Below, in pieces: positions 26,681-50,969 of a stretch of DNA of 64,000 nt. A program made the position numbers and the translations under genes. The notes under the pieces were generated by a model, which was not told the origin of the DNA, searched no databases, and was given only the letters and a program-made list of their open reading frames with translations. Numbering within the stretch: the first letter of the stretch is position 1; each line of letters begins with the position of its first letter. Origin of the DNA: Acidobacteriota bacterium (lineage in GTDB: Bacteria > Acidobacteriota > Thermoanaerobaculia > Multivoradales > J023); contig JAJCXO010000162.1 in assembly GCA_029263395.1 (NCBI GenBank), positions 8,798 to 72,797 of the forward strand. The letters are read 5' to 3'.

Positions 26681-27274
26681 TTGACAGCAAACGGCACCGA
26701 CATCACAGATCTGTTGCTTGCTTGGCGAGGTGGCGACGCCGACGCGCTGGCCGAGCTGATGCCGGTTACCTATCGCAGCTTGAAGGCGGTGGCGGCGCGA
26801 CTGCTGCGCAACGAACGTGGCGGCCAAGCACTGGAAACCACCGGGCTAGTGCACGAAGTCTACCTTCGTCTGGCGGATCTGGAGCGCGTCAGCTGGCAGG
26901 ATCGAGCCCACTTCTATGCCTTGAGCGCTAGGTTGATGCGCCAGATTCTGGTGGACCTCGCCCGCGCTCGGTCGCGCCTCAAGCGCGGCGCCAACCAGGT
27001 CGTGATCTCGGTCGACGAGTTGGAGCCCAAGTCCGAAACCACCCGTCCTCCCGATCTGTTGGCACTCGACGACGCGCTGCGCGATCTGACCAAGATCAAT
27101 GCCGAGTACGCTCGGGTCGTAGAGCTTCGTTTCTTTGGCGGCCTGGGCCGCAACGAAATCGCCGAAGTGCTGGGCATCTCGAGCGCTACGGTCTCGCGAC
27201 GGTGGCGCGCAGCCCGCGCTTGGTTGTCTACTTATCTCGCAGAAGGGCCCGGCCATGCCATCTCTCGGTTTTAG
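26681..27274 (+). CDS. ECF sigma factor of the Ser/Thr-kinase-associated type (ECF43 / TIGR02999 'Sig-70_X6'-like)
   Basis: Region 2 (LLLAWRGGDADALAELMPVTY...LVHEVYLRL) and region 4 (VVELRFFGGLGRNEIAEVLGISSATVSRRWRAARAWL). TTG start with GGAGGG 8 nt upstream. A membrane Ser/Thr kinase follows within ~500 bp. Confidence 0.85.
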   Translation: MTANGTDITDLLLAWRGGDADALAELMPVTYRSLKAVAARLLRNERGGQALETTGLVHEVYLRLADLERVSWQDRAHFYALSARLMRQILVDLARARSRLKRGANQVVISVDELEPKSETTRPPDLLALDDALRDLTKINAEYARVVELRFFGGLGRNEIAEVLGISSATVSRRWRAARAWLSTYLAEGPGHAISRF

Positions 27275-27460
27275 CCGTAAGAAGCTGATACAACCCGGCA
27301 GCCAATGTCGCCTATACAGGCCGAGATCAGCGCATTTCCGCACGTGGGCGCTGCCGGGAGACGCCGGAAGACGTATGAACAACAGTCGATTCACTCCCGA
27401 CCCAATCTCCAAGGACCGAAGCAATGATGCTTGCGGCTCAACAAGAAGGGATTCGAAAGA

Positions 27461-27742
27461 ATGTCGATCAACAAGAACAAGATCGGATGGCTCCTCGGCT
27501 CGCTGGCGTTTGTCATGGTCATGTTTGCAACCTCAACAACCGTGTTGGGTGCGTACAACGATCCCGGTCACACGGAGTGGGTCAAGACTCAGCTGGCAAA
27601 CGCTTATGACTACACTTGCGTCGGCGAGAGTTGCCACGAGCTTTGCGTCGTCTTCCGGTCAGGTCGGGTGGTTCCCAAAGGCACACTCTGCTGTCTCGAT
27701 AGCAGCGGCGTCTGCGACACCAGCACACTCAATACCCCATAG
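27461..27742 (+). CDS. Small secreted cysteine-rich protein (signal peptide + ~62-aa mature region with 7 Cys)
   Basis: MSINKNKIGWLLGSLAFVMVMFATSTTVLGA, then YNDPGH...CVGESCHELCVV...CCLDSSGVCD. No family recognised. It sits between the ECF sigma and its kinase. Confidence 0.5.
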   Translation: MSINKNKIGWLLGSLAFVMVMFATSTTVLGAYNDPGHTEWVKTQLANAYDYTCVGESCHELCVVFRSGRVVPKGTLCCLDSSGVCDTSTLNTP

Positions 27743-27766
27743 CCACCGACCGTCTGGCAGGACACA

Positions 27767-30439
27767 GTGAAGATCGAGGCCTGGGAGGCCGTCCTGGAGC
27801 TCTTCGAGCAGGCCATGGCGAAGCCAGAACCCGATCGCGACGCGTTCGTCCAACGAACCTGCGACGGCGATCCACAGCTGTTGCGAGCGGTCCGAGGCAT
27901 GATCGCCGCGGACCGCCAAGCCGACAACATCCTCGATCAGCCGTTGGTGGAACGCTGCGGCGTGAGGGCAACACCGCGGCTGGCAACTGCGGCGGTCAGC
28001 CCACCGACCCTCCCCAGCGATGGCTCCGGCGGTTTGCCTGTCGTCGGCTGGCCACCTCGTTATCCGCTGGTCGAGCCGGACTGGATCGGACCGTACCGTA
28101 TCATTCGCCAGATCGGCCAGGGCGGCATGAGCACCGTCTACCTGGCGAGCCGTGACGACGACACCTACCACAAACAAGTGGCGATCAAGGTAGTGCGCCA
28201 CGATCTCGAGCACGAACCGATCCTGCGGCGCCTGCGAGCGGAGCGACAGATCCTGGCCAGTCTCGAACACCCCAACATCGCCCGCTTGTACGATGGCGGG
28301 ACGACCGACGAAGGCCTGCCCTTCTTTGTCATGGAGTATGTCGAGGGTGAGCCGATCGATCTGTACTGTGACCACTACGGCCTGACCGTCGACCAACGTC
28401 TGACTCTGTTTCACAAAGTCTGCCAGGCGGTGCACCATGCGCATCAGAATTTAGTCATCCACCGCGACCTCAAACCCACGAACATCCTCGTCGATCGCAG
28501 CGGCGATCCCAAGCTGCTCGACTTCGGCATCGCCAAAGTGCTCAACCCGACGGCATGGGCCCTCGATATCGAGCCGACCCGCACTGTGCACCGCATGCTG
28601 ACGCCTTCCTACGCCAGTCCCGAGCAGTATCGCGGCAAGCTGGTGTCGACCGCTGGTGACGTCTACTCGCTAGGAGTGTTGCTGTACGAGCTGCTGACCG
28701 GCCGCTTGCCCTTCGACTTCGCCGGCCTTTCTCCAGCCGAGGTCGAGCGCCAGCTCATCGAAACCGAACCGAAAGCACCAAGCATGGCTGTCTCCTCAGA
28801 TACCGCGGCATCTGGCAGCCCGGCGCTACCACGGTCCGGAGCCCAGGCACTCTTCGCCGGTGGCCGCTGGTTGAGCAAGACTCTGGCCGGAGATCTCGAC
28901 GCCATCGTGCTCAAGGCTCTGCGCAGCCTGCCGCAGGCGAGATACGGTTCCGCCGAACAGCTCGCCGCCGAGATCGAGCGCTATCGCACTGGCCTACCCA
29001 TCCAAGCTCGTCAAGGTAGCTGGCGATACCGGTCTTACAAATTCGCCCAGCGTCACCGTGCACTCCTCGCCGCCACCGCCGCCACTGGGTTGTTGCTGCT
29101 AGTGGTCGCAATCACCATCATGCAACAAGCCGCCAGAGTTGCACAGGAGCGCGATCAGGCGCAGCGTGAGCGCAATCAGAAGAGTGCAATCATCACACTC
29201 TTCGAAGACCTGATCGCCGAAGCCGACCCTCTGCGCGGCAACGATCGCGATCTGACGGTTCGCGAGTTGCTGGGGGGCAGTAGCCAGCTCTTGGTGGGGC
29301 GGCTCACCGATCAACCCGCAACGCGCGCCGCATTGCTCCACACCACAGGCGGCATGTTAGCCGAGCTCGCTTCGCTAGCCGACGCCCGCGCTCATCTCGA
29401 AGAAGCCATCGCACTGCGAACCGCAAACCTTGGTCCCGACCATCCAGAAACCGCCGCCTCGATGGGTAAGCTGGCGCGCGTCTTGTTGGAGCTTGGGGAG
29501 CTGACAGAGGCCGAGAGGCTGGGACGCCGCTCCGTGGACCTGCTGCGGCAAAGGCATGACCCGGATCCGATCGCTTTGTCTGCTGCGTTGCGCTCGTTCG
29601 CGCTCGTGCTGTGGGCTCGTAATGATCTCGACAACGCTGCCGCCCGCGCACGAGAGGCGCTCGATCTGGTCGCCGACGGTCAACCCTCACTGCACGATAC
29701 CGCACGCTCATTGAGTTTGAATCTGCTCGGGCAGCTGGAAGCCCAGCGGGGACAATACGACCGAGCTGCCGCGGCTACCCGTCGAAGCCTGGCGATCGTC
29801 GAACAGCGCTACGGTGAAGAATCACCCCGGCTGATTCCGATTCTCAACAATCTCGCTCTTGCCTTGCGGTGGTCGAACGAGTTGGAAGAAGCTGAGCAGA
29901 TGTACCTTCGAGCCCGCGCCTTGATCCTCGCAAGCTACGGTGAGAACCATCAGGTTTTTGCGGTATCGAGCAACAACCTCGGCGGCGTTCGATTCGCTCG
30001 CGGCGACTATGACGGCGCGGCGAGCGCCTACAGCGAAGCCCGCCACACCATGAGCGAAACCCTAGGTGCAGATCATTGGAGGGTGTTCTTCGTCGAGACC
30101 AACCTCGCCTCCGCCCGCATTCGATTGGGAGATATCGCGACTGCAGAGCACGACTTGCGGGCCGGGATCGCACACTGGCGAGCTCGACTGAAGGCCGATC
30201 ACTGGCTTTTCGCCCAGGCCAACAGCTTGCTCGGAGAAGCAGCGGCCGCCCAAGGCCGAGTCGCCGAAGCTGAGGACCTGCTCACCACCAGTCTTCGACG
30301 TTTGATCGCGGTGGCGGCCAAGGACCGCTATCAGCGCAAGGCCCTCGAACGCCTCAGCGCCTTCCTGACCCAGCAGGGGCGCAGCGACGAAATCGCAGCC
30401 TTCGAATTGCTCCTGGCGGCCGGTGCCGACGCGACCTGA
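27767..30439 (+). CDS. Membrane Ser/Thr protein kinase with extracytoplasmic C-terminal TPR domain
   Basis: Hanks kinase motifs (VAIKVV, HRDLKPTNIL, DFGIAK, ASPEQ). A single TM helix (ALLAATAATGLLLLVVAITIM) follows. Then ~450 aa of TPR repeats. A conserved ~60-aa N-terminal segment is shared with the other two kinases. Confidence 0.9.
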   Translation: MKIEAWEAVLELFEQAMAKPEPDRDAFVQRTCDGDPQLLRAVRGMIAADRQADNILDQPLVERCGVRATPRLATAAVSPPTLPSDGSGGLPVVGWPPRYPLVEPDWIGPYRIIRQIGQGGMSTVYLASRDDDTYHKQVAIKVVRHDLEHEPILRRLRAERQILASLEHPNIARLYDGGTTDEGLPFFVMEYVEGEPIDLYCDHYGLTVDQRLTLFHKVCQAVHHAHQNLVIHRDLKPTNILVDRSGDPKLLDFGIAKVLNPTAWALDIEPTRTVHRMLTPSYASPEQYRGKLVSTAGDVYSLGVLLYELLTGRLPFDFAGLSPAEVERQLIETEPKAPSMAVSSDTAASGSPALPRSGAQALFAGGRWLSKTLAGDLDAIVLKALRSLPQARYGSAEQLAAEIERYRTGLPIQARQGSWRYRSYKFAQRHRALLAATAATGLLLLVVAITIMQQAARVAQERDQAQRERNQKSAIITLFEDLIAEADPLRGNDRDLTVRELLGGSSQLLVGRLTDQPATRAALLHTTGGMLAELASLADARAHLEEAIALRTANLGPDHPETAASMGKLARVLLELGELTEAERLGRRSVDLLRQRHDPDPIALSAALRSFALVLWARNDLDNAAARAREALDLVADGQPSLHDTARSLSLNLLGQLEAQRGQYDRAAAATRRSLAIVEQRYGEESPRLIPILNNLALALRWSNELEEAEQMYLRARALILASYGENHQVFAVSSNNLGGVRFARGDYDGAASAYSEARHTMSETLGADHWRVFFVETNLASARIRLGDIATAEHDLRAGIAHWRARLKADHWLFAQANSLLGEAAAAQGRVAEAEDLLTTSLRRLIAVAAKDRYQRKALERLSAFLTQQGRSDEIAAFELLLAAGADAT

Positions 30440-33782: not shown

Positions 33783-34349
33783 TCACTCGGAGGTCATTTC
33801 CCGGTAGAGCCAGGCCTTGGCCAACCGCCAGCGGCGTTTGACGGTGGCCGGCGAGCAGCCGAGCACCTCCGCCGTTTCCTCGCCGGTGAGCCCACCAAAG
33901 AAGCGCACCTCGACGATCCTCGCCTGAGTTGAGTCCAGTTCTTTGAGGCGACTCAGGGCCCGATCGAGCGCCAACAACTGATCGGAGCGCTCAAAGGCCA
34001 AATCGACAACCGCCGACAGCGGGATCTTCTCACCGCTGTTCCGCTTAGCAGACCCATGGCGGCGAGCATGATCCACCAAAATCCGCCGGATCATCTTGGC
34101 GGCAATACCAAAAAAGTGCGAACGGTTCTGCCATTGGACATGCTTCTGGTCGACCAAACGCACATACGCTTCGTGGACCAAGGCGGTCGGCTGCAGGGTG
34201 TGATTCTGACGCTCGATCGACAGATAACCCGCGGCTATTTTACGCAGCTCGGCGTAGACCAGGGGCATCAGCTCCTCGCCCGCCTGTGCATCGCCTCCTC
34301 GCCAGGCCTCGAGGAGACAGGTTACGTCCTGCCCACCTGGGGAACTCAT
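33783..34349 (-). CDS. ECF sigma factor (ECF43 / TIGR02999-like), paralogue of the 26681 gene
   Basis: 'DVTCLLEAWRGGDAQAGEELMPLVYAELRK...LVHEAYVRL...VEVRFFGGLTGEETAEVLGCSPATVKRRWRLAKAWL'. The start is chosen at the internal ATG (34349) by homology. The longest ORF starts at 34634 but would overlap the upstream gene. Confidence 0.8.
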   Translation of the reverse strand: MSSPGGQDVTCLLEAWRGGDAQAGEELMPLVYAELRKIAAGYLSIERQNHTLQPTALVHEAYVRLVDQKHVQWQNRSHFFGIAAKMIRRILVDHARRHGSAKRNSGEKIPLSAVVDLAFERSDQLLALDRALSRLKELDSTQARIVEVRFFGGLTGEETAEVLGCSPATVKRRWRLAKAWLYREMTSE

Positions 34350-43224: not shown

Positions 43225-45741
43225 CTAGCGAAGCTCACTTCTATCACGTAGGACCGGCGGCTTTCCCCAAGCCTCGTAGAGTTCAACCAGACGTTGCCGA
43301 GCATCGCGGGTGTAGACCGAGCTTGGCCCTTTTTGCTCTAGCAACGCCCGGTGACTGGTGATCAACAACGGTTCGGCTTCTACAAATTGACTTTGGGCAG
43401 TCAGTACCGCCCCCAACACACTGCGGGTATCGGCGAGTCGCCAATAGTCTTCCGGTCGGGTGGCCTGTAGGCTGGTCAACGCTTGCTGAGCCAGCTTGCT
43501 GGCGGCGTCTGGCTGTCCGAGGTCGAGCAACAGGTTAGCCAGGTTACGACGCGAGACCGCTACATCGTGATGCGCTGCTCCCAACTCTCGCAGTCGAATC
43601 TCCAACACTTTTCGAAACAGTGTTTCCGACTCGGAGGTGTCACCCAAACGATGTAAGCAGACGGCCAGATTATTGAGGCTCTTGGCCACCTCGAGATGGT
43701 CTTCACCGAAAATCTGACGCCGTTGATCCGCCACCTCTCTGAAGAGGTCCGCAGCTTTTTGATACGCACCGCGGTGATAACTCAGACGTGCCACATGCTG
43801 CAGGCTCTGCACCAGATCCGCGGCATTCGGTTCGAGCTTGGTACGGCGGATCTCGAGGGCCTGGTGAAACAGGGTTGCCGCTTCTTCGGTCCGGCCTTGG
43901 CTTTCGAGCAGTGTCCCAAGGTTGCTGAGCCCACGCGCCACCTGTAGATCGTCTTGGCCCACGAGCCGATACTTCATCTCCAAGGACTCGCGGTAAAGCG
44001 TCTCGGCTTCGGCTAGCTCGCCGAGATCTTGCAACAGCCCGGCGTAGTTGTTCAACGCCAGGGCCAGCCGGCGATCGTCTCGACCGTCGAAGTGACGGCG
44101 TAGGTTGTCGAGGGCGGTGCGCATCAAGAGTTGGGCTTCCGGGATCTCGTCTTGCCAACGATGCATATAGCCGAGGTTGAACATGGTCTCAGCCACCCGT
44201 GGATCGTCACCGCCGTAGAGCCGGCGCTGGATCTCCAACGACTCGTCAATCAGCGATTCGGCAATCTCCAACGATCCGAGGGCGCCATAGGTCCGACCCA
44301 GGGTCTCCAATACCCGGGCCTGCAACTCCGGCTCATCACCGAGCGACTTGGCGAGCCGTTCCTTAGCCTGATCGATCACACGCCGCGGATTGGGCTTCTG
44401 GCGCGGATCCGGCGACTGCAAGGTTTCTTCCAGGAAAGCCACCACGGTTTCGACCCGCTGGCGCTCGCTCGAGGTTTGGAGCGTCGAACGCGCCAAACCG
44501 ACTCCAAGGGCGAGCAGAGCGGCGGCCACCAGGATTTCTACCTTGCGGCGCCAAACAAATTTAGTGAAGGGATACCACAGCGTGCCGTGTCGTGCAGCCA
44601 CCGGAAGACCGTCGAGATGGCGTTGGATCTCTGCGGCCAACTCGGCGGCGGAGCCGTAACGCTCGGCCGGGTCACGGCAGAGCGTCTTGAGCACGATGGC
44701 ATCGAGATCACCTTGTAGCTGCCGTTTCAATCCTCGGGGATCACACCCCCGGGCTCGGCTCGAGACCTCCGGCGCCAGCTCCGGTCGCCCGGCAATTGCG
44801 GTCCCCACGACCACCGAGCTGGCACGGCGGGGCGGCTCACCTGAGGCCGGCCTCAGGCTAGGTGCGGTGGCGAGGTCGAGATCCCAGGGCAGGCGTCCGG
44901 TCAACAGACTGTAGAGCAACACTCCGAGGGAATAGAGATCACTCGCGGTGGTGATGGCTTCCCCCATCAGCTGCTCGGGGCTGGCGTAGCTGAGAGTCAT
45001 CGGCGCTAGCCCGGTGGTGGTCTCGGGCGCCGACTCGGTAGCGAGTAGCTTGGCAACCCCAAAGTCGAGCAGCTTGGGTATCGCATCCTCGGTCACCAGG
45101 ATGTTCGAGGGTTTGATGTCGCGATGCACGACTAGGTTTAGGTGCGCAAACGCCACCGCCTCGCAGACCTTACTAAACAGCTCGAGCCGTTGGCGGATCG
45201 AATATGCTCGGGTGTCGCAATAGTGATCGATGCGCTCACCTTCAACGTGCTCCATCACGAAGTATGGGCGTCCATCGTCGGTGGTGCCGCCATCGAGCAG
45301 CCGGGCGATGAAAGGGTGTTCGAGCTGGGCCAGGATCCGACGCTCGTGCACAAAACGGCGTGCAATCTCGTCGCTGCCGTGGCCATGGATCAGCTTGATG
45401 GCCACCTGCGCTTGGTAGTCGTCCTCGCGGACAGCAAGGTAGACCTGTCCCATGCCACCGCTGCCGATTTGGCGTTCGAGACGATAGGGGCCAAGTCGAC
45501 GACCAGCGTCCTGGCCCGCCGTCGGTTCGGGCACGCGGAGCTTCAGACATGGCTCTTCGATAAATTCACCAATCTCTGATTCGAGAGCGAGAAACGCCTC
45601 GACTTCCTCACGCAAGGACGGATCGTTGCCACAACGCGCGGCGAGCAGCCTTTCACGCTCGGCGGATGGCAAGATCAGGGCTTCGGCGAGGATCGCCTGA
45701 ATCTGGCTCCAACGGTCGCTCGACCAACCCGTCGCGGCCAC
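43225..45741 (-). CDS. Membrane Ser/Thr protein kinase with extracytoplasmic C-terminal TPR domain
   Basis: VAIKLI, HRDIKPSNIL, DFGVAK, ASPEQ. TM helix (VEILVAAALLALGVGLA). TPR repeats. Confidence 0.9.
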   Translation of the reverse strand: MAATGWSSDRWSQIQAILAEALILPSAERERLLAARCGNDPSLREEVEAFLALESEIGEFIEEPCLKLRVPEPTAGQDAGRRLGPYRLERQIGSGGMGQVYLAVREDDYQAQVAIKLIHGHGSDEIARRFVHERRILAQLEHPFIARLLDGGTTDDGRPYFVMEHVEGERIDHYCDTRAYSIRQRLELFSKVCEAVAFAHLNLVVHRDIKPSNILVTEDAIPKLLDFGVAKLLATESAPETTTGLAPMTLSYASPEQLMGEAITTASDLYSLGVLLYSLLTGRLPWDLDLATAPSLRPASGEPPRRASSVVVGTAIAGRPELAPEVSSRARGCDPRGLKRQLQGDLDAIVLKTLCRDPAERYGSAAELAAEIQRHLDGLPVAARHGTLWYPFTKFVWRRKVEILVAAALLALGVGLARSTLQTSSERQRVETVVAFLEETLQSPDPRQKPNPRRVIDQAKERLAKSLGDEPELQARVLETLGRTYGALGSLEIAESLIDESLEIQRRLYGGDDPRVAETMFNLGYMHRWQDEIPEAQLLMRTALDNLRRHFDGRDDRRLALALNNYAGLLQDLGELAEAETLYRESLEMKYRLVGQDDLQVARGLSNLGTLLESQGRTEEAATLFHQALEIRRTKLEPNAADLVQSLQHVARLSYHRGAYQKAADLFREVADQRRQIFGEDHLEVAKSLNNLAVCLHRLGDTSESETLFRKVLEIRLRELGAAHHDVAVSRRNLANLLLDLGQPDAASKLAQQALTSLQATRPEDYWRLADTRSVLGAVLTAQSQFVEAEPLLITSHRALLEQKGPSSVYTRDARQRLVELYEAWGKPPVLRDRSELR

Positions 45742-45754
45742 CTACATCTCCCGA

Positions 45755-46729
45755 TCAGTGCACGTCGCGACGCGACTCGGAAACATCGTCGCGAGGCGAC
45801 TCGGAAGCACCCTCGCGGCGCATCTCATAGAAGAGGAACCGCCGTGCCATCGCAAAGTCTCGTTTGACCGTCATCGTGGAGACGTCGAGTAAGTCGGCAA
45901 TCTCCTCATGGGTCAAGCCACCAAAAAAGCGCATCTCGACCACCTCCGACTGACGTGGCGCGATCTGCCGGAGACACTCCAGGGCATCTTGCAACGCGAT
46001 CAGATCAAGCGACGTTTCATTGGCAATCTCGAGGTCGGGTCCCAGGGAGACCCGGACGACACCGCCACCGCGGCCATCTTCCGGCATCTTGGAAATCACC
46101 GTCAGTGGCTCGCTGCTGGTGACGTTGCCAAAGGTAATGGTGGCCCCGGAGGTCCGGCTCGGCCAGGGTTCGCGGACCGCATACCGCAGATAATCGGCGT
46201 CCCACTCGTGGCCCCGGGTGGCATGATCAGCACCGTTCTGACCCCTACCGTGGCGTCCAATACCGTGCTCTCCCGAAAGAGACGTTGCGATACACGCAGC
46301 GCCGGTGACGATGCTACGCATCCAGCCGGTAGAGCCAAGCCCGGTCGAAACGATGATCCCGCTGGACGATTGGTTCTCGGCATGTTCGCCGATACGGATT
46401 TCATACCGTGCCGAAGTGTGGCTGCGAGGACCGATAAACAGATCATTGACGCCGTAGAGCACTTCACCGGTATTCAAGGTCACCTGCGCCATCGTCACAT
46501 GGCGTATCGGGCGTCGACGCTCGAAGGTTTCGAGCACTACCGACTCGAGGTGTCCCACCTCGAACGGCAGCAGTACCCCCTCCCACCGTTCGACGTCGGG
46601 ATTGACGCCGATCAGCCATTGTCCGTCCAAGTACTTCAATACGTTCGCCACCAAACCATCCTGCCCGAGGGCAACCACCGTATCGCTGGCCCCGAACATG
46701 AAGTTCGGCAAGAAGGCACGATTCACCAC
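45755..46729 (-). CDS. Fusion protein: N-terminally truncated NAD-kinase-like domain + C-terminal sigma-70 region-4 HTH
   Basis: N-terminal ~230 aa aligns by eye to NadK motifs. GGDG becomes 'LGQDGLV'. NE/D becomes 'VNDLFI'. 'DGLIISTPTGSTAYS' becomes 'SGIIVSTGLGSTGWMRS'. The C-terminal ~70 aa is ECF region 4 (VEMRFFGGLTHEEIADLLDVSTMTVKRDFAMARRFL). GTG start. An in-frame stop 22 codons upstream limits any N-terminal extension. It occupies the position that the ECF sigma holds in the other two kinase loci. Confidence 0.55.
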   Translation of the reverse strand: MVNRAFLPNFMFGASDTVVALGQDGLVANVLKYLDGQWLIGVNPDVERWEGVLLPFEVGHLESVVLETFERRRPIRHVTMAQVTLNTGEVLYGVNDLFIGPRSHTSARYEIRIGEHAENQSSSGIIVSTGLGSTGWMRSIVTGAACIATSLSGEHGIGRHGRGQNGADHATRGHEWDADYLRYAVREPWPSRTSGATITFGNVTSSEPLTVISKMPEDGRGGGVVRVSLGPDLEIANETSLDLIALQDALECLRQIAPRQSEVVEMRFFGGLTHEEIADLLDVSTMTVKRDFAMARRFLFYEMRREGASESPRDDVSESRRDVH

Positions 46730-46949
46730 TTGCAGGCCGGGAGATGTAGAGCTGTGAGTTATCGTCCCCGAGCTGCGGCGCTGTAGCGTAATTCATGAGA
46801 TGTTTTCCTTGTGCAAAGAGACCTGCCGGCTGGCCGTTCGCCGGCTGGCCGATCGCGGCCAACAAGCAACGCAGGGAAACCCCGTGCCCCCCTGTTCACC
46901 CCATCACGCGGAATCGGAACCGCAAAGGGAACATCCCCAGGCAATTTTT

Positions 46950-48945
46950 TTATCGCGGTGGGTTGCCCAACGAGCTCAACTCGGCGATGAGCTGATCGAG
47001 CCACGGCTCGACCACGCCGCGGGCACGACGACGGTCACGGATCAACCGCAGGTTGTCAGCCGTCGAAACGCCCTGCCAGGGCTCCGCCATCGTCACCAGC
47101 GCTTCGGCACAAGCGCTCGATGCCGCCGGACCGTCACCGCCGAGCACCGCCAGCTCGAGCGCCGTGGCATGCGCCCAATAGCCGGGTCGCTCAGCCCTCA
47201 GCTGCTGTTTGACCGCAAACTGCACCAAAGGCAAAAGCTCACGCTGGCGTTCCAGGGATTCCGCGGCACCCTTGATGTCGAGCAGGGTGAGCGCGTTGAT
47301 GCCGGCATAACCGTTGCGCCAATCGATCTCAAAACCTTGGATGTAGTTGGCGATTGCCTTGTCGAGGTAGCCGGTGGCCAGGATCGTCCGATCCTGCTGC
47401 TCGGCTTGGCGCCACAGATCTTTGTACGCTCGCCCCATCATGCCGCAGGTTTCGTGACTCGGCCCCACCTCTTGCAACAGCTGGTCGAGCATCCAGATCG
47501 CTTGCTGATGTTCACCTTGCCGATTGAGGGCAAAGGCGAGTTGCTGGCGAGCTGCCGGCAACTGACGCTGCCCCCGCGGTAAACGATCGTAGATCCGCAC
47601 CATGTCGTCCCAACTCTCGACCGCACGATAGGCCAGGAATAGCTCCATCGCGAGGTCGCCATCAACATCCTCGAGCGGGCCCATCTGGGTTTCGATGCCT
47701 TGTAGCTCAATGGCACTGCCGCGACCGCGGGCGCTCGTCAGCTCGCGGATCCACTCGGCCGGCGACCGACCACCCAGCGTCTCAGAGCCCTGCCACAGCA
47801 CGCCGTCCTCGAGCCGCATGAAGAGCATCGGCAAGCTCCAATCCGGCAGATCCGATGCCGTTAGATGGAGCTTTTGGCGGGCCTCGTTGACCGCGGCATC
47901 CACCCGTCCCCACAAGGCGAGATGGCGATAGAGATGCTCCGTAAAACACCCGGCAGCGTCGACAGGAAGGGCGCCAGAAGCCGCAATCGCCGCCGGTACC
48001 CCGCGCCGAACCAGTTGTGGCGCCAGACCGGAGAAGGGGCTGTCCCCGGCGGACGCCCCGCCGTGACAAGCCATCAGGGTGATCAGCCGCAGTGAAAGAT
48101 CTCCCTCGACGATCTCCGCCACCATCCGTTCGGGGACAAGCTCGACCTCACCCGTCGTCGTTTCCAACACCAAATGAGCACAACCCTCGGCGTCGATACC
48201 GCCATGACCCACCAGGTGCAGCACATGAAACCCGCCTTCCAACAGGCGATCACGAATCCGCACGACCGTCGCCGGGACCTCTAACATCTCGAACGACAGA
48301 TGAGGTGTCAGCGGCTCTAGGCTCGTGGTCAACGTTTTGTCGTATCGCCCCAGCATCCATTGCGGCGAGGCCGTAGGCTTCGAGATTCCGCGGCGCCGCA
48401 ACCACGACCAAAACCCGTGGTCGCTCGACCACCGCCGTCCCAGGTGCCAGCGGTACGCTCAGATATCGACTGAGGGTCACAGCGTGAGATCGCCCCAGAG
48501 ACCGGCCCTCGCGGGGATCGCGCAGCAGCTCCCACCGCAGTTGATGCAGCGGTTGCGGTGCCACCGGTGACAGATGCAAACGAACCCGCAGTACCCGCCC
48601 GCCGTTGCGCGCCAAGGTCAGCGCCTCTCGGTAGCCAGCGAGCAACTCGTCACCCTCGCGGAACAGCCCTTGGAAAAGCTGCGTACCGTAGGCGTCGAGA
48701 TCGAGGGCAACCCGCCTCAGCTCGCGGCGCAGACTCTCGCCGAGGTCCGGACGACCGAGGAATTCGCGTCCCGCCACCGACAACATGGCGTGATCGTCAG
48801 CGGTGAGGAGAATCTCACAGTCCAACGCCCGCCGGGAAGCCCGCCCCATGTCTCGAGAGCCGGGGTCACGCTGTGGCACAGTACGGTCTGGCACAGCACG
48901 GTCTGACACAGCACGGTCTGACACGGGATCGTGCGATCGGGTCAT
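46950..48945 (-). CDS. CHAT-domain (caspase-fold) protease with C-terminal helical repeat domain; reading frame apparently interrupted near 48250-48400
   Basis: The upstream part (ORF 48250..48945) carries CHAT N-terminal features (LHQLRWELLRD, RPRVLVVVAAP). The downstream part (ORF 46950..48401, a different frame) carries the His/Cys dyad contexts (VLHLVGHGG; LITLMACHGG). A ~270-aa alpha-helical C-terminal domain follows. The two ORFs overlap by ~150 nt. That is consistent with a frameshift or sequencing error in a single gene. Confidence 0.6.
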
Positions 48946-50969
48946 GGTTGTTTTGCCACCGAGAGCTTCCCCCCGTCGACGGGCAAACGCGCCGCTGGAT
49001 CCCCCAACACGATTGTGCTGCTGGCCTGATGATGCCTCAGCCAGGCATCGACCAGGGCATGGTCCGAAATCGGCGCACCAAAGCTCGCCTTGCGACGCAG
49101 GTCTTCAAGCTCGAGAGCCGCCGACGCCTGCTGGCCGATAAGCTCCCGCAGTGCATGCCCCACTGGCTGACCGTCGAGCAACGCGGTCAGGATCACTCGC
49201 CACCACCGGCGCTGATCCGACGCCAAGCTGGCATTAAACGTGGCAGCTCGGTCCACCATGCCAACAACCGCGAGCGCGCTGCCGCCGGGATGCGAAAGTA
49301 AGCGCTGAGGTAAACCCGCAACGAAGGCTTCGCCGTGATCTTGCGCCGGAGTCCCCGCTCCGAATGAGGATACGAAGAGCATCATCGAGTTCGCGAGGTT
49401 TGTGTCGGCGGGGACATCCCGAGCGGACAGAACGTGGTGCGGCTCAACCGGCCCGTTGCCAGGCCAGTCCTGGCAGATCAACGCCCCTTGACTCACCACC
49501 TGATCGTCATGCTCGGTCCGCCAACCGAGACCGTGGGCCGCCGCCAGCATCACCGTGGGTGCCGCGTTCGCTTCGGATAGGACCTCGATCAACCGGGAGC
49601 GGGTTGCCGCCGAACCCAGCAGGCGGACCACGTCGACCGTGCCCTGCTCCACCAACTCCGCAGCGAGGGGCTCGACGAACCCATCAACGTCCCGAGAGTC
49701 CTGCTCTCCACGACCGCGGGGCGCACGATCGCGCGGCGCAAAGAAAACTGCCCGCGGTTCAACCCATGACTCGTTCCGGACCTCTGACGCGATCACACTT
49801 TCGGCATACCGTCGATAGTCCTGGGGCTGCTCGAGGCTGATCCGTCCGACCGCGTACTGAACTTGCAGCGCACGTTGCAGCTCGAACGAAACTCGACGAG
49901 GCGACCCGACCAGCAGCAAAAAATACGGCACCTTCTCGGGTATCAGGCGATCACCGGCCGCCACCCCGTGGCGCGCCAGCCACTCCCGCCAATCTTCGCC
50001 CTCGCGGACTTCGAGGACTGCCACCGGCCCGCCGGCTTGGCGCCGATGTTCGATCAGTGGTGCAAGCGCTGCCCGCACCTCCGCGGGCTCCTCCGCATGG
50101 ACAACCAACGCCCAACCGGCTCGTTCGATCTCGACGCCTGAGATCCCGTCCGGCAGACTCAATGTTGGTTGAGTGCGCGCCCGATGCATCCGACGCAAAA
50201 GCTCGACGAGAAACCGATCCTGGACCTCGGCTTGGATCGTCCTAGCCGCCTCGGCCAGCAAAAAAGCGTTTATCAAGCGATCGCCGGTGACCGCGTCGAG
50301 TCCAGACCAGTGGATCGCGGTCTCGGTATCCAACACCGTGCTCTCCGACACCTCGCCAGCCTTACCCGTCTTGATGCTCTCGGTGCCAGCCGTCTCGGCA
50401 GTGGTCTCGGCGGTGCCAGCCGTCTCGGTGCCAGCCGTCTCGGCCTCTCCCCCGGCAATCGCCACCAAGGCATCTCGCGCTTCGGTAAGCTCTCGTACCA
50501 AATCCTCGTAAACACATTCACTCTCGATCTCATTTTCACTAGTGCTCAGATGGAGAGCATCCGCAGAGATCGCTTGCCGCTTGCGGTGAACACGATCCAG
50601 GTCCTCCGTTGCCAGTTGGCCGGTGCGTCGACGAGGATCGAAAACTGCTGCTGGCAGCCGAGCGCCGATCCGGCAGCGCACCGTGAGGACACCGCCATCC
50701 TGGCCTGAGATCGCGACATCGGCACTACCAACTTCGCGGTTGAGATCACCGGCAACCACTCGTAAAGATCCCTCCCCTTCGGGATCCGACTCAATGACGA
50801 CCCACTGAAGCCCGCAGTCGGCGGTCTGCTCAAAAACATACAGATCGCCAGGAACGGGTGCCGCTGCCTGCCGCTGTCCCTCTTCGAGAGCAACCCGAGT
50901 CTCTGTCAGGCGTTGGGCGGCATCTGCCGCACGCCGCCGAGCCTGCTCACGGAAGTCTGAGTTGTTCAC
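48942..50969 (-). CDS. Large protein with C-terminal gingipain/clostripain (C25/C11)-like caspase-fold domain; catalytic Cys position appears to be Ser
   Basis: 'KVPYFLLLVGSPRRV' leading strand. 'TVMLAAAHGLGW' is a His-Gly context. 'MMLFVSSFGAGT' sits where caspase-fold enzymes carry the nucleophilic Cys. The N-terminal ~165-aa domain is unassigned. A Thr/Ala/Glu low-complexity linker (ETAGTETAGTAETTAETAGTE) separates the two. The stop overlaps the CHAT gene start by 4 nt. Confidence 0.4.
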   Translation of the reverse strand: MNNSDFREQARRRAADAAQRLTETRVALEEGQRQAAAPVPGDLYVFEQTADCGLQWVVIESDPEGEGSLRVVAGDLNREVGSADVAISGQDGGVLTVRCRIGARLPAAVFDPRRRTGQLATEDLDRVHRKRQAISADALHLSTSENEIESECVYEDLVRELTEARDALVAIAGGEAETAGTETAGTAETTAETAGTESIKTGKAGEVSESTVLDTETAIHWSGLDAVTGDRLINAFLLAEAARTIQAEVQDRFLVELLRRMHRARTQPTLSLPDGISGVEIERAGWALVVHAEEPAEVRAALAPLIEHRRQAGGPVAVLEVREGEDWREWLARHGVAAGDRLIPEKVPYFLLLVGSPRRVSFELQRALQVQYAVGRISLEQPQDYRRYAESVIASEVRNESWVEPRAVFFAPRDRAPRGRGEQDSRDVDGFVEPLAAELVEQGTVDVVRLLGSAATRSRLIEVLSEANAAPTVMLAAAHGLGWRTEHDDQVVSQGALICQDWPGNGPVEPHHVLSARDVPADTNLANSMMLFVSSFGAGTPAQDHGEAFVAGLPQRLLSHPGGSALAVVGMVDRAATFNASLASDQRRWWRVILTALLDGQPVGHALRELIGQQASAALELEDLRRKASFGAPISDHALVDAWLRHHQASSTIVLGDPAARLPVDGGKLSVAKQP

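Follow-up and report, generated by a model that had tools for sequence, protein, structure and literature searches.

A chimeric open reading frame of NAD-kinase-like and ECF sigma fragments, probably a deletion remnant in an Acidobacteriota operon

Sigma factors of the ECF43 group, one of the extracytoplasmic function (ECF) groups, have as their hallmark an adjacent gene for a Hanks-type Ser/Thr kinase, as in the pairs EcfP-PknT of Vibrio parahaemolyticus and EcfK-PknS of Xanthomonas citri; the sigma factor becomes able to bind core when the partner kinase phosphorylates a conserved threonine of a QTTA-type motif in sigma region 2.2, and phosphosites lie in the linker as well (PMC13147305). 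The other described proteins that matter here are the NAD kinases, among them NADK2 (PDB 7r4j/7r4l) and the bacterial housekeeping NadK. We examined a stretch of 64,000 nucleotides from an Acidobacteriota bacterium (the window; contig JAJCXO010000162.1) in which, directly upstream of a Hanks-type kinase gene as in the ECF43 pairs, a 324-codon open reading frame (ORF) combines an NAD-kinase-like half with the C-terminal part of an ECF sigma factor. A preliminary description of this DNA, made from the letters alone, preferred to see in the ORF a degenerate NadK-fold sensor domain on a DNA-binding module, and thus a new architecture, and offered a rearranged pseudogene as the alternative.

Our analysis leads to the less exotic answer. 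The ORF is probably a non-functional chimeric remnant made by two deletions in an ECF-sigma operon. Such a remnant is the product of an ordinary kind of event: chimeric ORFs and pseudogenes arising by intragenic deletions are known in bacterial genomes.

Two truncated genes in one reading frame

The two halves of the ORF resemble different proteins. Residues 220-304 retain nothing of an ECF sigma factor but its linker and region 4: in Pfam, positions 99-184 of the 185 in PF07638 match this part (E 2.9e-18), Sigma70_r4_2 (E 7.3e-13) and Sigma70_r4 (E 7.7e-11) match as well, and sigma region 2 was not found anywhere in the ORF, just as the preliminary description had it. NCBIfam gave the same picture of the sigma part, and the C-terminal 105 amino acids match PF07638/TIGR02999, as ECF43 sigma factors do. 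Residues 1-219 are NAD-kinase-like. The NCBIfam NadK models match residues 15-143 weakly (E 2.5e-4 and 4.7e-4, scores that fall well short of the curated cut-offs), and the Pfam NadK models PF01513 and PF20143 gave no match at E<=1 either with the ORF or with full-length members of its family, so that the Pfam check proposed in the preliminary description found the sigma70_r4 family and neither of the two NadK families. In a search of 5.8 billion proteins, residues 1-219 proved to be approximately 65% identical to thousands of proteins of about 312 amino acids; these carry no Pfam domain, and some have the source label 'NAD kinase' or 'sugar kinase'.

The origin of the two halves became apparent from relatives of the locus. 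With the kinase as query, a scan limited to a single genome for each species yielded an Acidobacteriota contig from a metagenome-assembled genome (MAG), here called L001, and a protein search yielded two further contigs, L084 (9.3 Mb) and L085. L001 carries, all intact, genes for a 162-amino-acid protein (p162), a Band_7/SPFH protein, a 312-amino-acid NadK-like protein, a 191-amino-acid ECF sigma factor and the kinase. The order in L084 is an intact CHAT gene, p156, Band_7, NadK-like, sigma and kinase, and that in L085 is CHAT, p157, sigma and kinase, with no Band_7/NadK pair. These relatives suggest that the ancestral order would have been a promoter, a gene of approximately 160 codons, Band_7/SPFH, a 312-amino-acid NADK2-like gene, an ECF43-like sigma gene and the TPR Ser/Thr kinase gene.

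Because three abutting pieces of the window map onto genes of L001, the locus can be read as this ancestral operon after two deletions. In tblastn comparisons, amino acids 1-29 of p162 align with window positions 46796..46710 in frame -3 (E 2.5e-5), amino acids 70-279 of the L001 NadK-like protein with 46735..46073 in frame -1, and amino acids 98-187 of the L001 sigma factor with 46072..45803 in frame -1 at 78% identity. The ends of the middle piece are sharp, in that all tblastn alignments of five family members and the L001 orthologue end at 46735 and 46073. The flanks of junction 1 lie in frames -3 and -1, and approximately 1.6 kb is gone there relative to L001, namely the rest of the ~160-codon gene, the whole of Band_7 and the 5' end of the NadK-like gene. 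At junction 2, where 438 bp is gone relative to L001, the window reads MPEDG/RGGGVVRVSL (the slash marks the junction), against MPENG/VIFSDG in the NadK-like protein and AARR/GGGVVRLSL in the sigma factor of L001. Any microhomology at the two junctions amounts to a few nucleotides at most and is not pinpointable at the present divergence. Searches of the window by tblastn did not find the displaced first 68 or last 33 residues of the NadK-like protein elsewhere, nor, with the L001 protein as query, Band_7, so that the adjacency to Band_7 that is typical of the 312-amino-acid family is lacking here.

The comparison shows that deletion 1, of about 1.6 kb, removed everything from codon 22 of the ~160-codon gene to approximately codon 68 of the NADK2-like gene and left an out-of-frame join. 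Deletion 2, of about 0.44 kb, removed the last 33 NADK2-like codons, the spacer and the first 97 sigma codons, including all of sigma-2, and left an in-frame join. The pieces are truncated with respect to intact syntenic orthologues and have definable junctions, as remnants do (Table 1). The syntenic relatives thus support the rearranged pseudogene over the new architecture, the halves of which turn out to be fragments of adjacent genes. The preliminary description had put the N-terminal shortfall of the NadK-like half at about 40 residues, judged against a canonical NadK; relative to the protein's own family 68 are missing, and the loss of the last 33 had been overlooked.

Table 1. Positions of the features discussed (window coordinates unless a relative is named)
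Feature	Position	Strand	Remarks
Chimeric ORF, 324 codons	45755..46729	-	GTG start
Remnant of the ~160-aa gene: first 21 codons (MNYATAPQLGDDNSQLYISRP) and AAGGA ribosome-binding site	46734..46796	-	tblastn, codon comparison
Deletion junction 1	46734..46741	-	out-of-frame join of ~160-aa gene codon 21 with NadK-like residue ~69
NADK2-like internal fragment, family residues 69-279 of 312	46073..46735	-	tblastn
Deletion junction 2	46072..46073	-	NadK-like residue 279 joined in frame to sigma residue 98
Sigma linker and sigma-4 (region 4 helix-turn-helix) with stop codon, ECF43-like	45755..46072	-	PF07638, Sigma70_r4_2
Out-of-frame ORF, 110 codons	46464..46796	-	starts at the retained start of the ~160-aa gene, crosses the NadK-like fragment in the wrong frame
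TPR Ser/Thr (Hanks-type) kinase gene, intact	43225..45741	-	Pfam Pkinase E 3e-43 and TPR; own GGGAG ribosome-binding site
CHAT/TPR-S (MAP3K_TRAF_bd) gene, frameshifted	46950..48945	-	shift near 48300-48330; GGGG and AAAA runs
Promoter-like motif TGTTCC-N15-TCCGCGT, 28 nt	46906..46933	-	upstream of the operon's first gene
Motif sites in relatives	L001 319-346, 2360-2387; L084 2742-2769(-), 4820-4847; L085 4414-4441(-), 4460-4487, 6508-6535		(-) marks the minus strand
Band_7 and NADK2-like pair in relatives	L001 2953-4913; L081 3982-5942; L082 3979-5939; L084 5406-7366
Cassette comparison	L085 6601-7733 vs L001 2480-5534, L084 4933-8004

No second instance of the fusion was found in any database searched. 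Among the best 150 matches from 1.84 billion representative proteins (HMMER), both halves are spanned only by P0001, the protein of the same contig (74.6 kb at NCBI), and P0001 is also the sole full-query protein among the best 120 matches listed from the 5.8-billion-protein search. The other proteins listed by HMMER match query residues 1-219 only; two of the alignments run on within the NadK-like C-terminus, and in full-length members the match starts near residue 70. A local search with the sigma part found a sigma-like segment in none of the 268 homologues retrieved. Judged by these collections, the NadK-sigma fusion is a singleton. The preliminary description had asked for the same fusion in other genomes, and had named the lack of any homologous fusion together with a local deletion scar as the outcome that would make the ORF a pseudogene; this is the combination that we see.

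A singleton from a metagenome-assembled contig raises the question of an assembly or sequencing artefact (a chimeric contig or a collapsed region) behind which the real genome is intact, and the frameshift in the adjoining CHAT gene, lying in a GGGG/AAAA-rich stretch, could be read as an indel error. We regard this as barely credible, because a second assembler gave the same sequence: the Logan contigs L086 and L083, assembled independently from the same sample as run SRR15505512, agree with the window at 100% identity, without gaps, over 8.4 kb. Junction 1 and the CHAT frameshift lie in L086 (window positions 50851..46550) and junction 2 in L083 (46577..42452). An artefact would moreover require that two exact misjoins arose 663 bp from each other in a homologous gene order. 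It would also lead one to expect an intact allele among the proteins of the 5.8-billion-protein collection, which includes those of the SRR15505512 Logan assembly, but the best NadK-like match among the best 120 listed is 67% identical and no closer intact allele appears. The boundary between L086 and L083 falls within the NadK-like fragment, at 46550-46577, with a 28-bp overlap. This break might be an assembly-graph branch reflecting strain variation, which could be taken in favor of an artefact, or it might reflect only low coverage.

A different history for the same sequence would have the NadK-like fragment arrive in the sigma gene by insertion, either horizontally or from within the genome. 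The gene orders of the relatives bear on this, as the Band_7/NADK2-like pair seems to behave as a gain/loss cassette within the sigma operon. The variability of the pair, absent from L085, is compatible with an insertion, as is the identity of the fragment to the L001 and L084 copies (64-67%), which is no closer than to unrelated members (mean 67%). In L001 and L084, however, the NadK-like gene lies immediately upstream of the sigma gene and points the same way; the start of the ~160-codon gene, which precedes Band_7 there, is still present in the window; and the order of remnant, NadK-like fragment, sigma fragment and kinase is exactly what two deletions predict. The fragment has also diverged in proportion to the kinase and CHAT, and its G+C content at third codon positions (0.71) is native, being that of the neighboring genes. 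An insertion is therefore very unlikely.

In L085, a 90-bp spacer stands where L001 and L084 have the Band_7/NADK2-like pair, so that its absence is clean. We also considered gene conversion or recombination with the paralogous sigma loci of the window, and dropped the idea, since a DNA comparison gave only weak sigma-4 similarity and no evidence of such an exchange.

The NADK2-like parent family

The parent family of about 312 amino acids is a true NAD kinase relative, with human mitochondrial NADK2 as its nearest counterpart. Against the PDB, the L001 orthologue by itself matches human mitochondrial NADK2 with E 3.4e-7, and a profile of 39 family members matches the same protein with E 3.7e-20 and bacterial or archaeal NadK with E values of 1e-6 to 1e-3. 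An AlphaFold model of P0002, a full-length family member (predicted local distance difference test, pLDDT, 87; predicted template modelling score, pTM, 0.83), matches NAD kinase structures in Foldseek, with 7r4l at E 2.8e-18 and a TM score of 0.69. Together with the NCBIfam matches, these results bear out the NadK-like character that the preliminary description had given to the N-terminal half by eye.

Like NADK2 and bacterial NadK, the parent family has the NadK fold. Its own motifs GQDG, NDxFIG and SSSGxIVSTGxGSTGW answer to the GGDG-type, NE/D and GSTAY-like motifs of NAD kinases, and the window fragment keeps GQDG, NDLFIG and SSSGIIVSTGLGSTGW. The preliminary description took GQDG for a substituted GGDG. 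Since every sequence in a 39-member alignment of close family members has GQDG, the motif is no degraded GGDG; in a more diverse set the G, D and G are conserved and the Q is the majority residue without being invariant. The 'insertion' noted in the same half maps to a loop that is variable within the family. What sets the fragment apart from NADK2 and NadK is that it represents residues 69-279 of the parent only.

Unlike housekeeping NadK, the uncharacterised parent family escapes Pfam and has a Band_7/SPFH gene as its constant partner. In L001, L081, L082 and L084, the NADK2-like gene is in every case directly downstream of, and overlaps, a Band_7/SPFH gene of approximately 340 codons, and often a protein of approximately 150-160 amino acids without Pfam matches is encoded upstream of the pair. 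The possibility that these genes form a known defence system was dropped, as PADLOC gave no match for the ~160-amino-acid, Band_7, NadK-like or chimeric proteins.

Whether the chimera could work

The AlphaFold model of P0002 indicates what the NadK-like piece has lost. Absent before residue 69 are strand E8-13 and helices H17-25, H28-37 and H42-64, and absent after residue 279 are strands E279-283, E290-292, E298-303 and E308-311. The fragment thus starts inside strand 2 of the N-terminal domain and does not have the complete two-domain NadK fold, which extends from strand 1 to the last strands of the beta-sandwich. Among the missing residues are D284 and G285 of the FSDG motif, which are invariant in the family. 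Because the central strand 1, three helices and the last four strands with FSDG are missing, the piece should, on this model, be unable to work as an NAD-kinase-type enzyme.

The sigma piece, too, appears compromised. Sigma-4, the domain for -35 recognition, is present, but residues 1-97 of the orthologue, and with them sigma-2, are not. The intact L001 and L085 orthologues, like the window paralogue at 33783-34334, have QPTA at the phospho-switch site, and the threonine of this sigma-2.2 QPTA in the intact orthologues corresponds to the ECF43 phospho-switch. Unlike the ECF43 sigma factors, the window copy has had this region deleted, along with the core-binding surface. Because sigma-2, with its core binding, -10 reading and phospho-switch threonine, is missing, the piece would not be expected to act as a sigma factor.

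Translation signals point in the same direction. No Shine-Dalgarno-like sequence precedes GTG 46729, GTG 46726 or ATG 46699, and extension of the ORF is limited by an in-frame stop 22 codons 5' of the GTG start, as the preliminary description correctly reported. The AAGGA and ATG 46796 of the ~160-codon gene are retained but open a different frame, and ribosomes loading there would make a wrong-frame 110-codon peptide. Because the retained start reads the wrong frame and the ORF lacks its own ribosome-binding site, the 324-codon ORF is most likely untranslated or yields a non-functional product.

Several observations weigh against a dead gene. The missing Shine-Dalgarno sequence leaves room for translation by coupling or by leaderless initiation. 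There are no internal stops or frameshifts within the chimeric ORF, and junction 2 is in frame and leaves the ORF open for 324 codons, which would equally be expected of a selected fusion. Of 59 family-invariant columns in the fragment, one is changed, and of 82 columns at >=98% conservation, three are changed (family mean 0.43, maximum 3). To compare rates, we divided the Poisson distance from the window to L001/L084 by the distance between L001 and L084. This ratio is 1.64 for the NadK-like fragment and about 1.3 for sigma-4; the intact kinase has 1.69 and CHAT 1.55. There is thus no acceleration and no sign of relaxed constraint.

These observations speak for a young functional gene, in which the linker and the sigma-4 helix-turn-helix, carried on a partial NadK-like scaffold, act without sigma-2. 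Such a product could sit on the -35 element of the ECF promoter now left without its sigma factor, compete for the beta-flap, or serve as a decoy or substrate of the kinase. The intact ORF with its in-frame junction 2, the 78% identity of sigma-4 to L001, the 58 of 59 invariant NadK-like residues kept, the perfectly retained promoter-like motif upstream, and the retention of part of a linker that bears phosphosites in ECF43 sigma factors (PMC13147305) all fit this idea. We nevertheless hold it to be unlikely. The fusion has no second instance, core secondary-structure elements are missing at both NadK-like ends, the only good ribosome-binding site and ATG read another frame, the frameshift in the adjoining CHAT gene suggests local decay, and a very recent deletion accounts for the conservation equally well.

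The absence of degradation in the pieces implies that the deletions were evolutionarily recent. Recent deletions explain both the in-frame join, a one-in-three chance, and the open frame. The sequence comparisons fit deletions that were recent relative to the long branch between these genomes and equally an ORF that is still under constraint. The locus is like deletion-born pseudogenes in its pieces truncated against syntenic orthologues, its precise junctions, its lost native start, its singleton status and its frameshifted neighbor. It is unlike typical ones in lacking internal stops, frameshifts and rate acceleration, and as a pseudogene it would have to be very young. We favor the young pseudogene because the fusion is a singleton with missing fold elements, lost start signals and a neighboring frameshift.

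Neighboring genes, the promoter-like motif and implications

The kinase gene starts 14 bp after the stop codon of the chimeric ORF, and its product is 62% identical to the L001 kinase over amino acids 1-827. The preliminary description was right that a TPR Ser/Thr kinase, with Pkinase and TPR domains, adjoins the ORF, and right that the ECF43-like sigma genes at the other two kinase loci of the window, 26681-27274(+) and 33783-34334(-), are complete. The kinase downstream of the chimera, although intact, would have lost its cognate sigma factor. At the first of the other loci, the complete sigma gene 26681-27274 and its kinase gene (ORF start 27767) are about 490 bp apart (window 27275-27766, plus strand), unlike the other loci, where sigma and kinase genes abut or overlap. 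The sole ORF in that gap, 27135-27770, has no Pfam match.

On the other side of the chimera, the CHAT/TPR-S gene is split in the window into the overlapping ORFs 48250-48945 and 46950-48401. In relatives CHAT is intact, being a single gene of 641-650 amino acids in L084 and L085 and one continuous frame in L001. The Logan contig L086 has the frameshift too.

Between CHAT and the remnant of the ~160-codon gene lies a conserved upstream block, in which Rfam finds no family and which is better explained as a promoter-like motif followed by a hairpin. TGTTCC-N15-TCCGCGT has its sole exact match in the window here, with 0.01 expected. The full motif, (A/G)TGTTCC-N15-TCCGCGT(T/G)GT, has 7 further sites in L001, L084 and L085, for 8 in all. 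It stands upstream of the ~160-codon gene in 4 of 4 genomes, and in relatives it also precedes CHAT and a divergently transcribed gene of approximately 400 codons. With its two-block, ECF-type layout, it may be a candidate promoter and regulon signature of the kinase-coupled ECF sigma factor, and it survives in the window despite the destruction of the sigma gene. About 12 nt downstream of the motif is a G+C-rich hairpin (CAGGGGGGCACGGGGTTTCCCTG, 46872-46894, minus strand) with a terminator-like score and partial conservation in L001 and L084, perhaps an operon leader structure or the terminator of CHAT.

A specific version of the functional reading would be a newly born sigma-4-only repressor acting at the -35 of TGTTCC-N15-TCCGCGT, or a decoy that soaks up the orphaned kinase. 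We give it little chance, but if true it would be an observed case of a regulator arising by deletion-fusion.

If, as we think probable, the ORF is a deletion remnant, it stands as a caution: a new-looking architecture in a single MAG turned out, once its gene order was set against that of three relatives, to be a deletion scar. A 'NadK-sigma' family label should not be propagated from it, nor a nucleotide-sensing sigma-like regulator inferred. The by-products of the analysis are of more use than the fusion. There is a widespread bacterial NADK2-like family that is invisible to Pfam and linked throughout to Band_7/SPFH genes; the conserved promoter-like motif may define the regulon of a kinase-coupled ECF sigma factor; and the locus would offer a natural case of a Ser/Thr kinase newly deprived of its cognate sigma factor.

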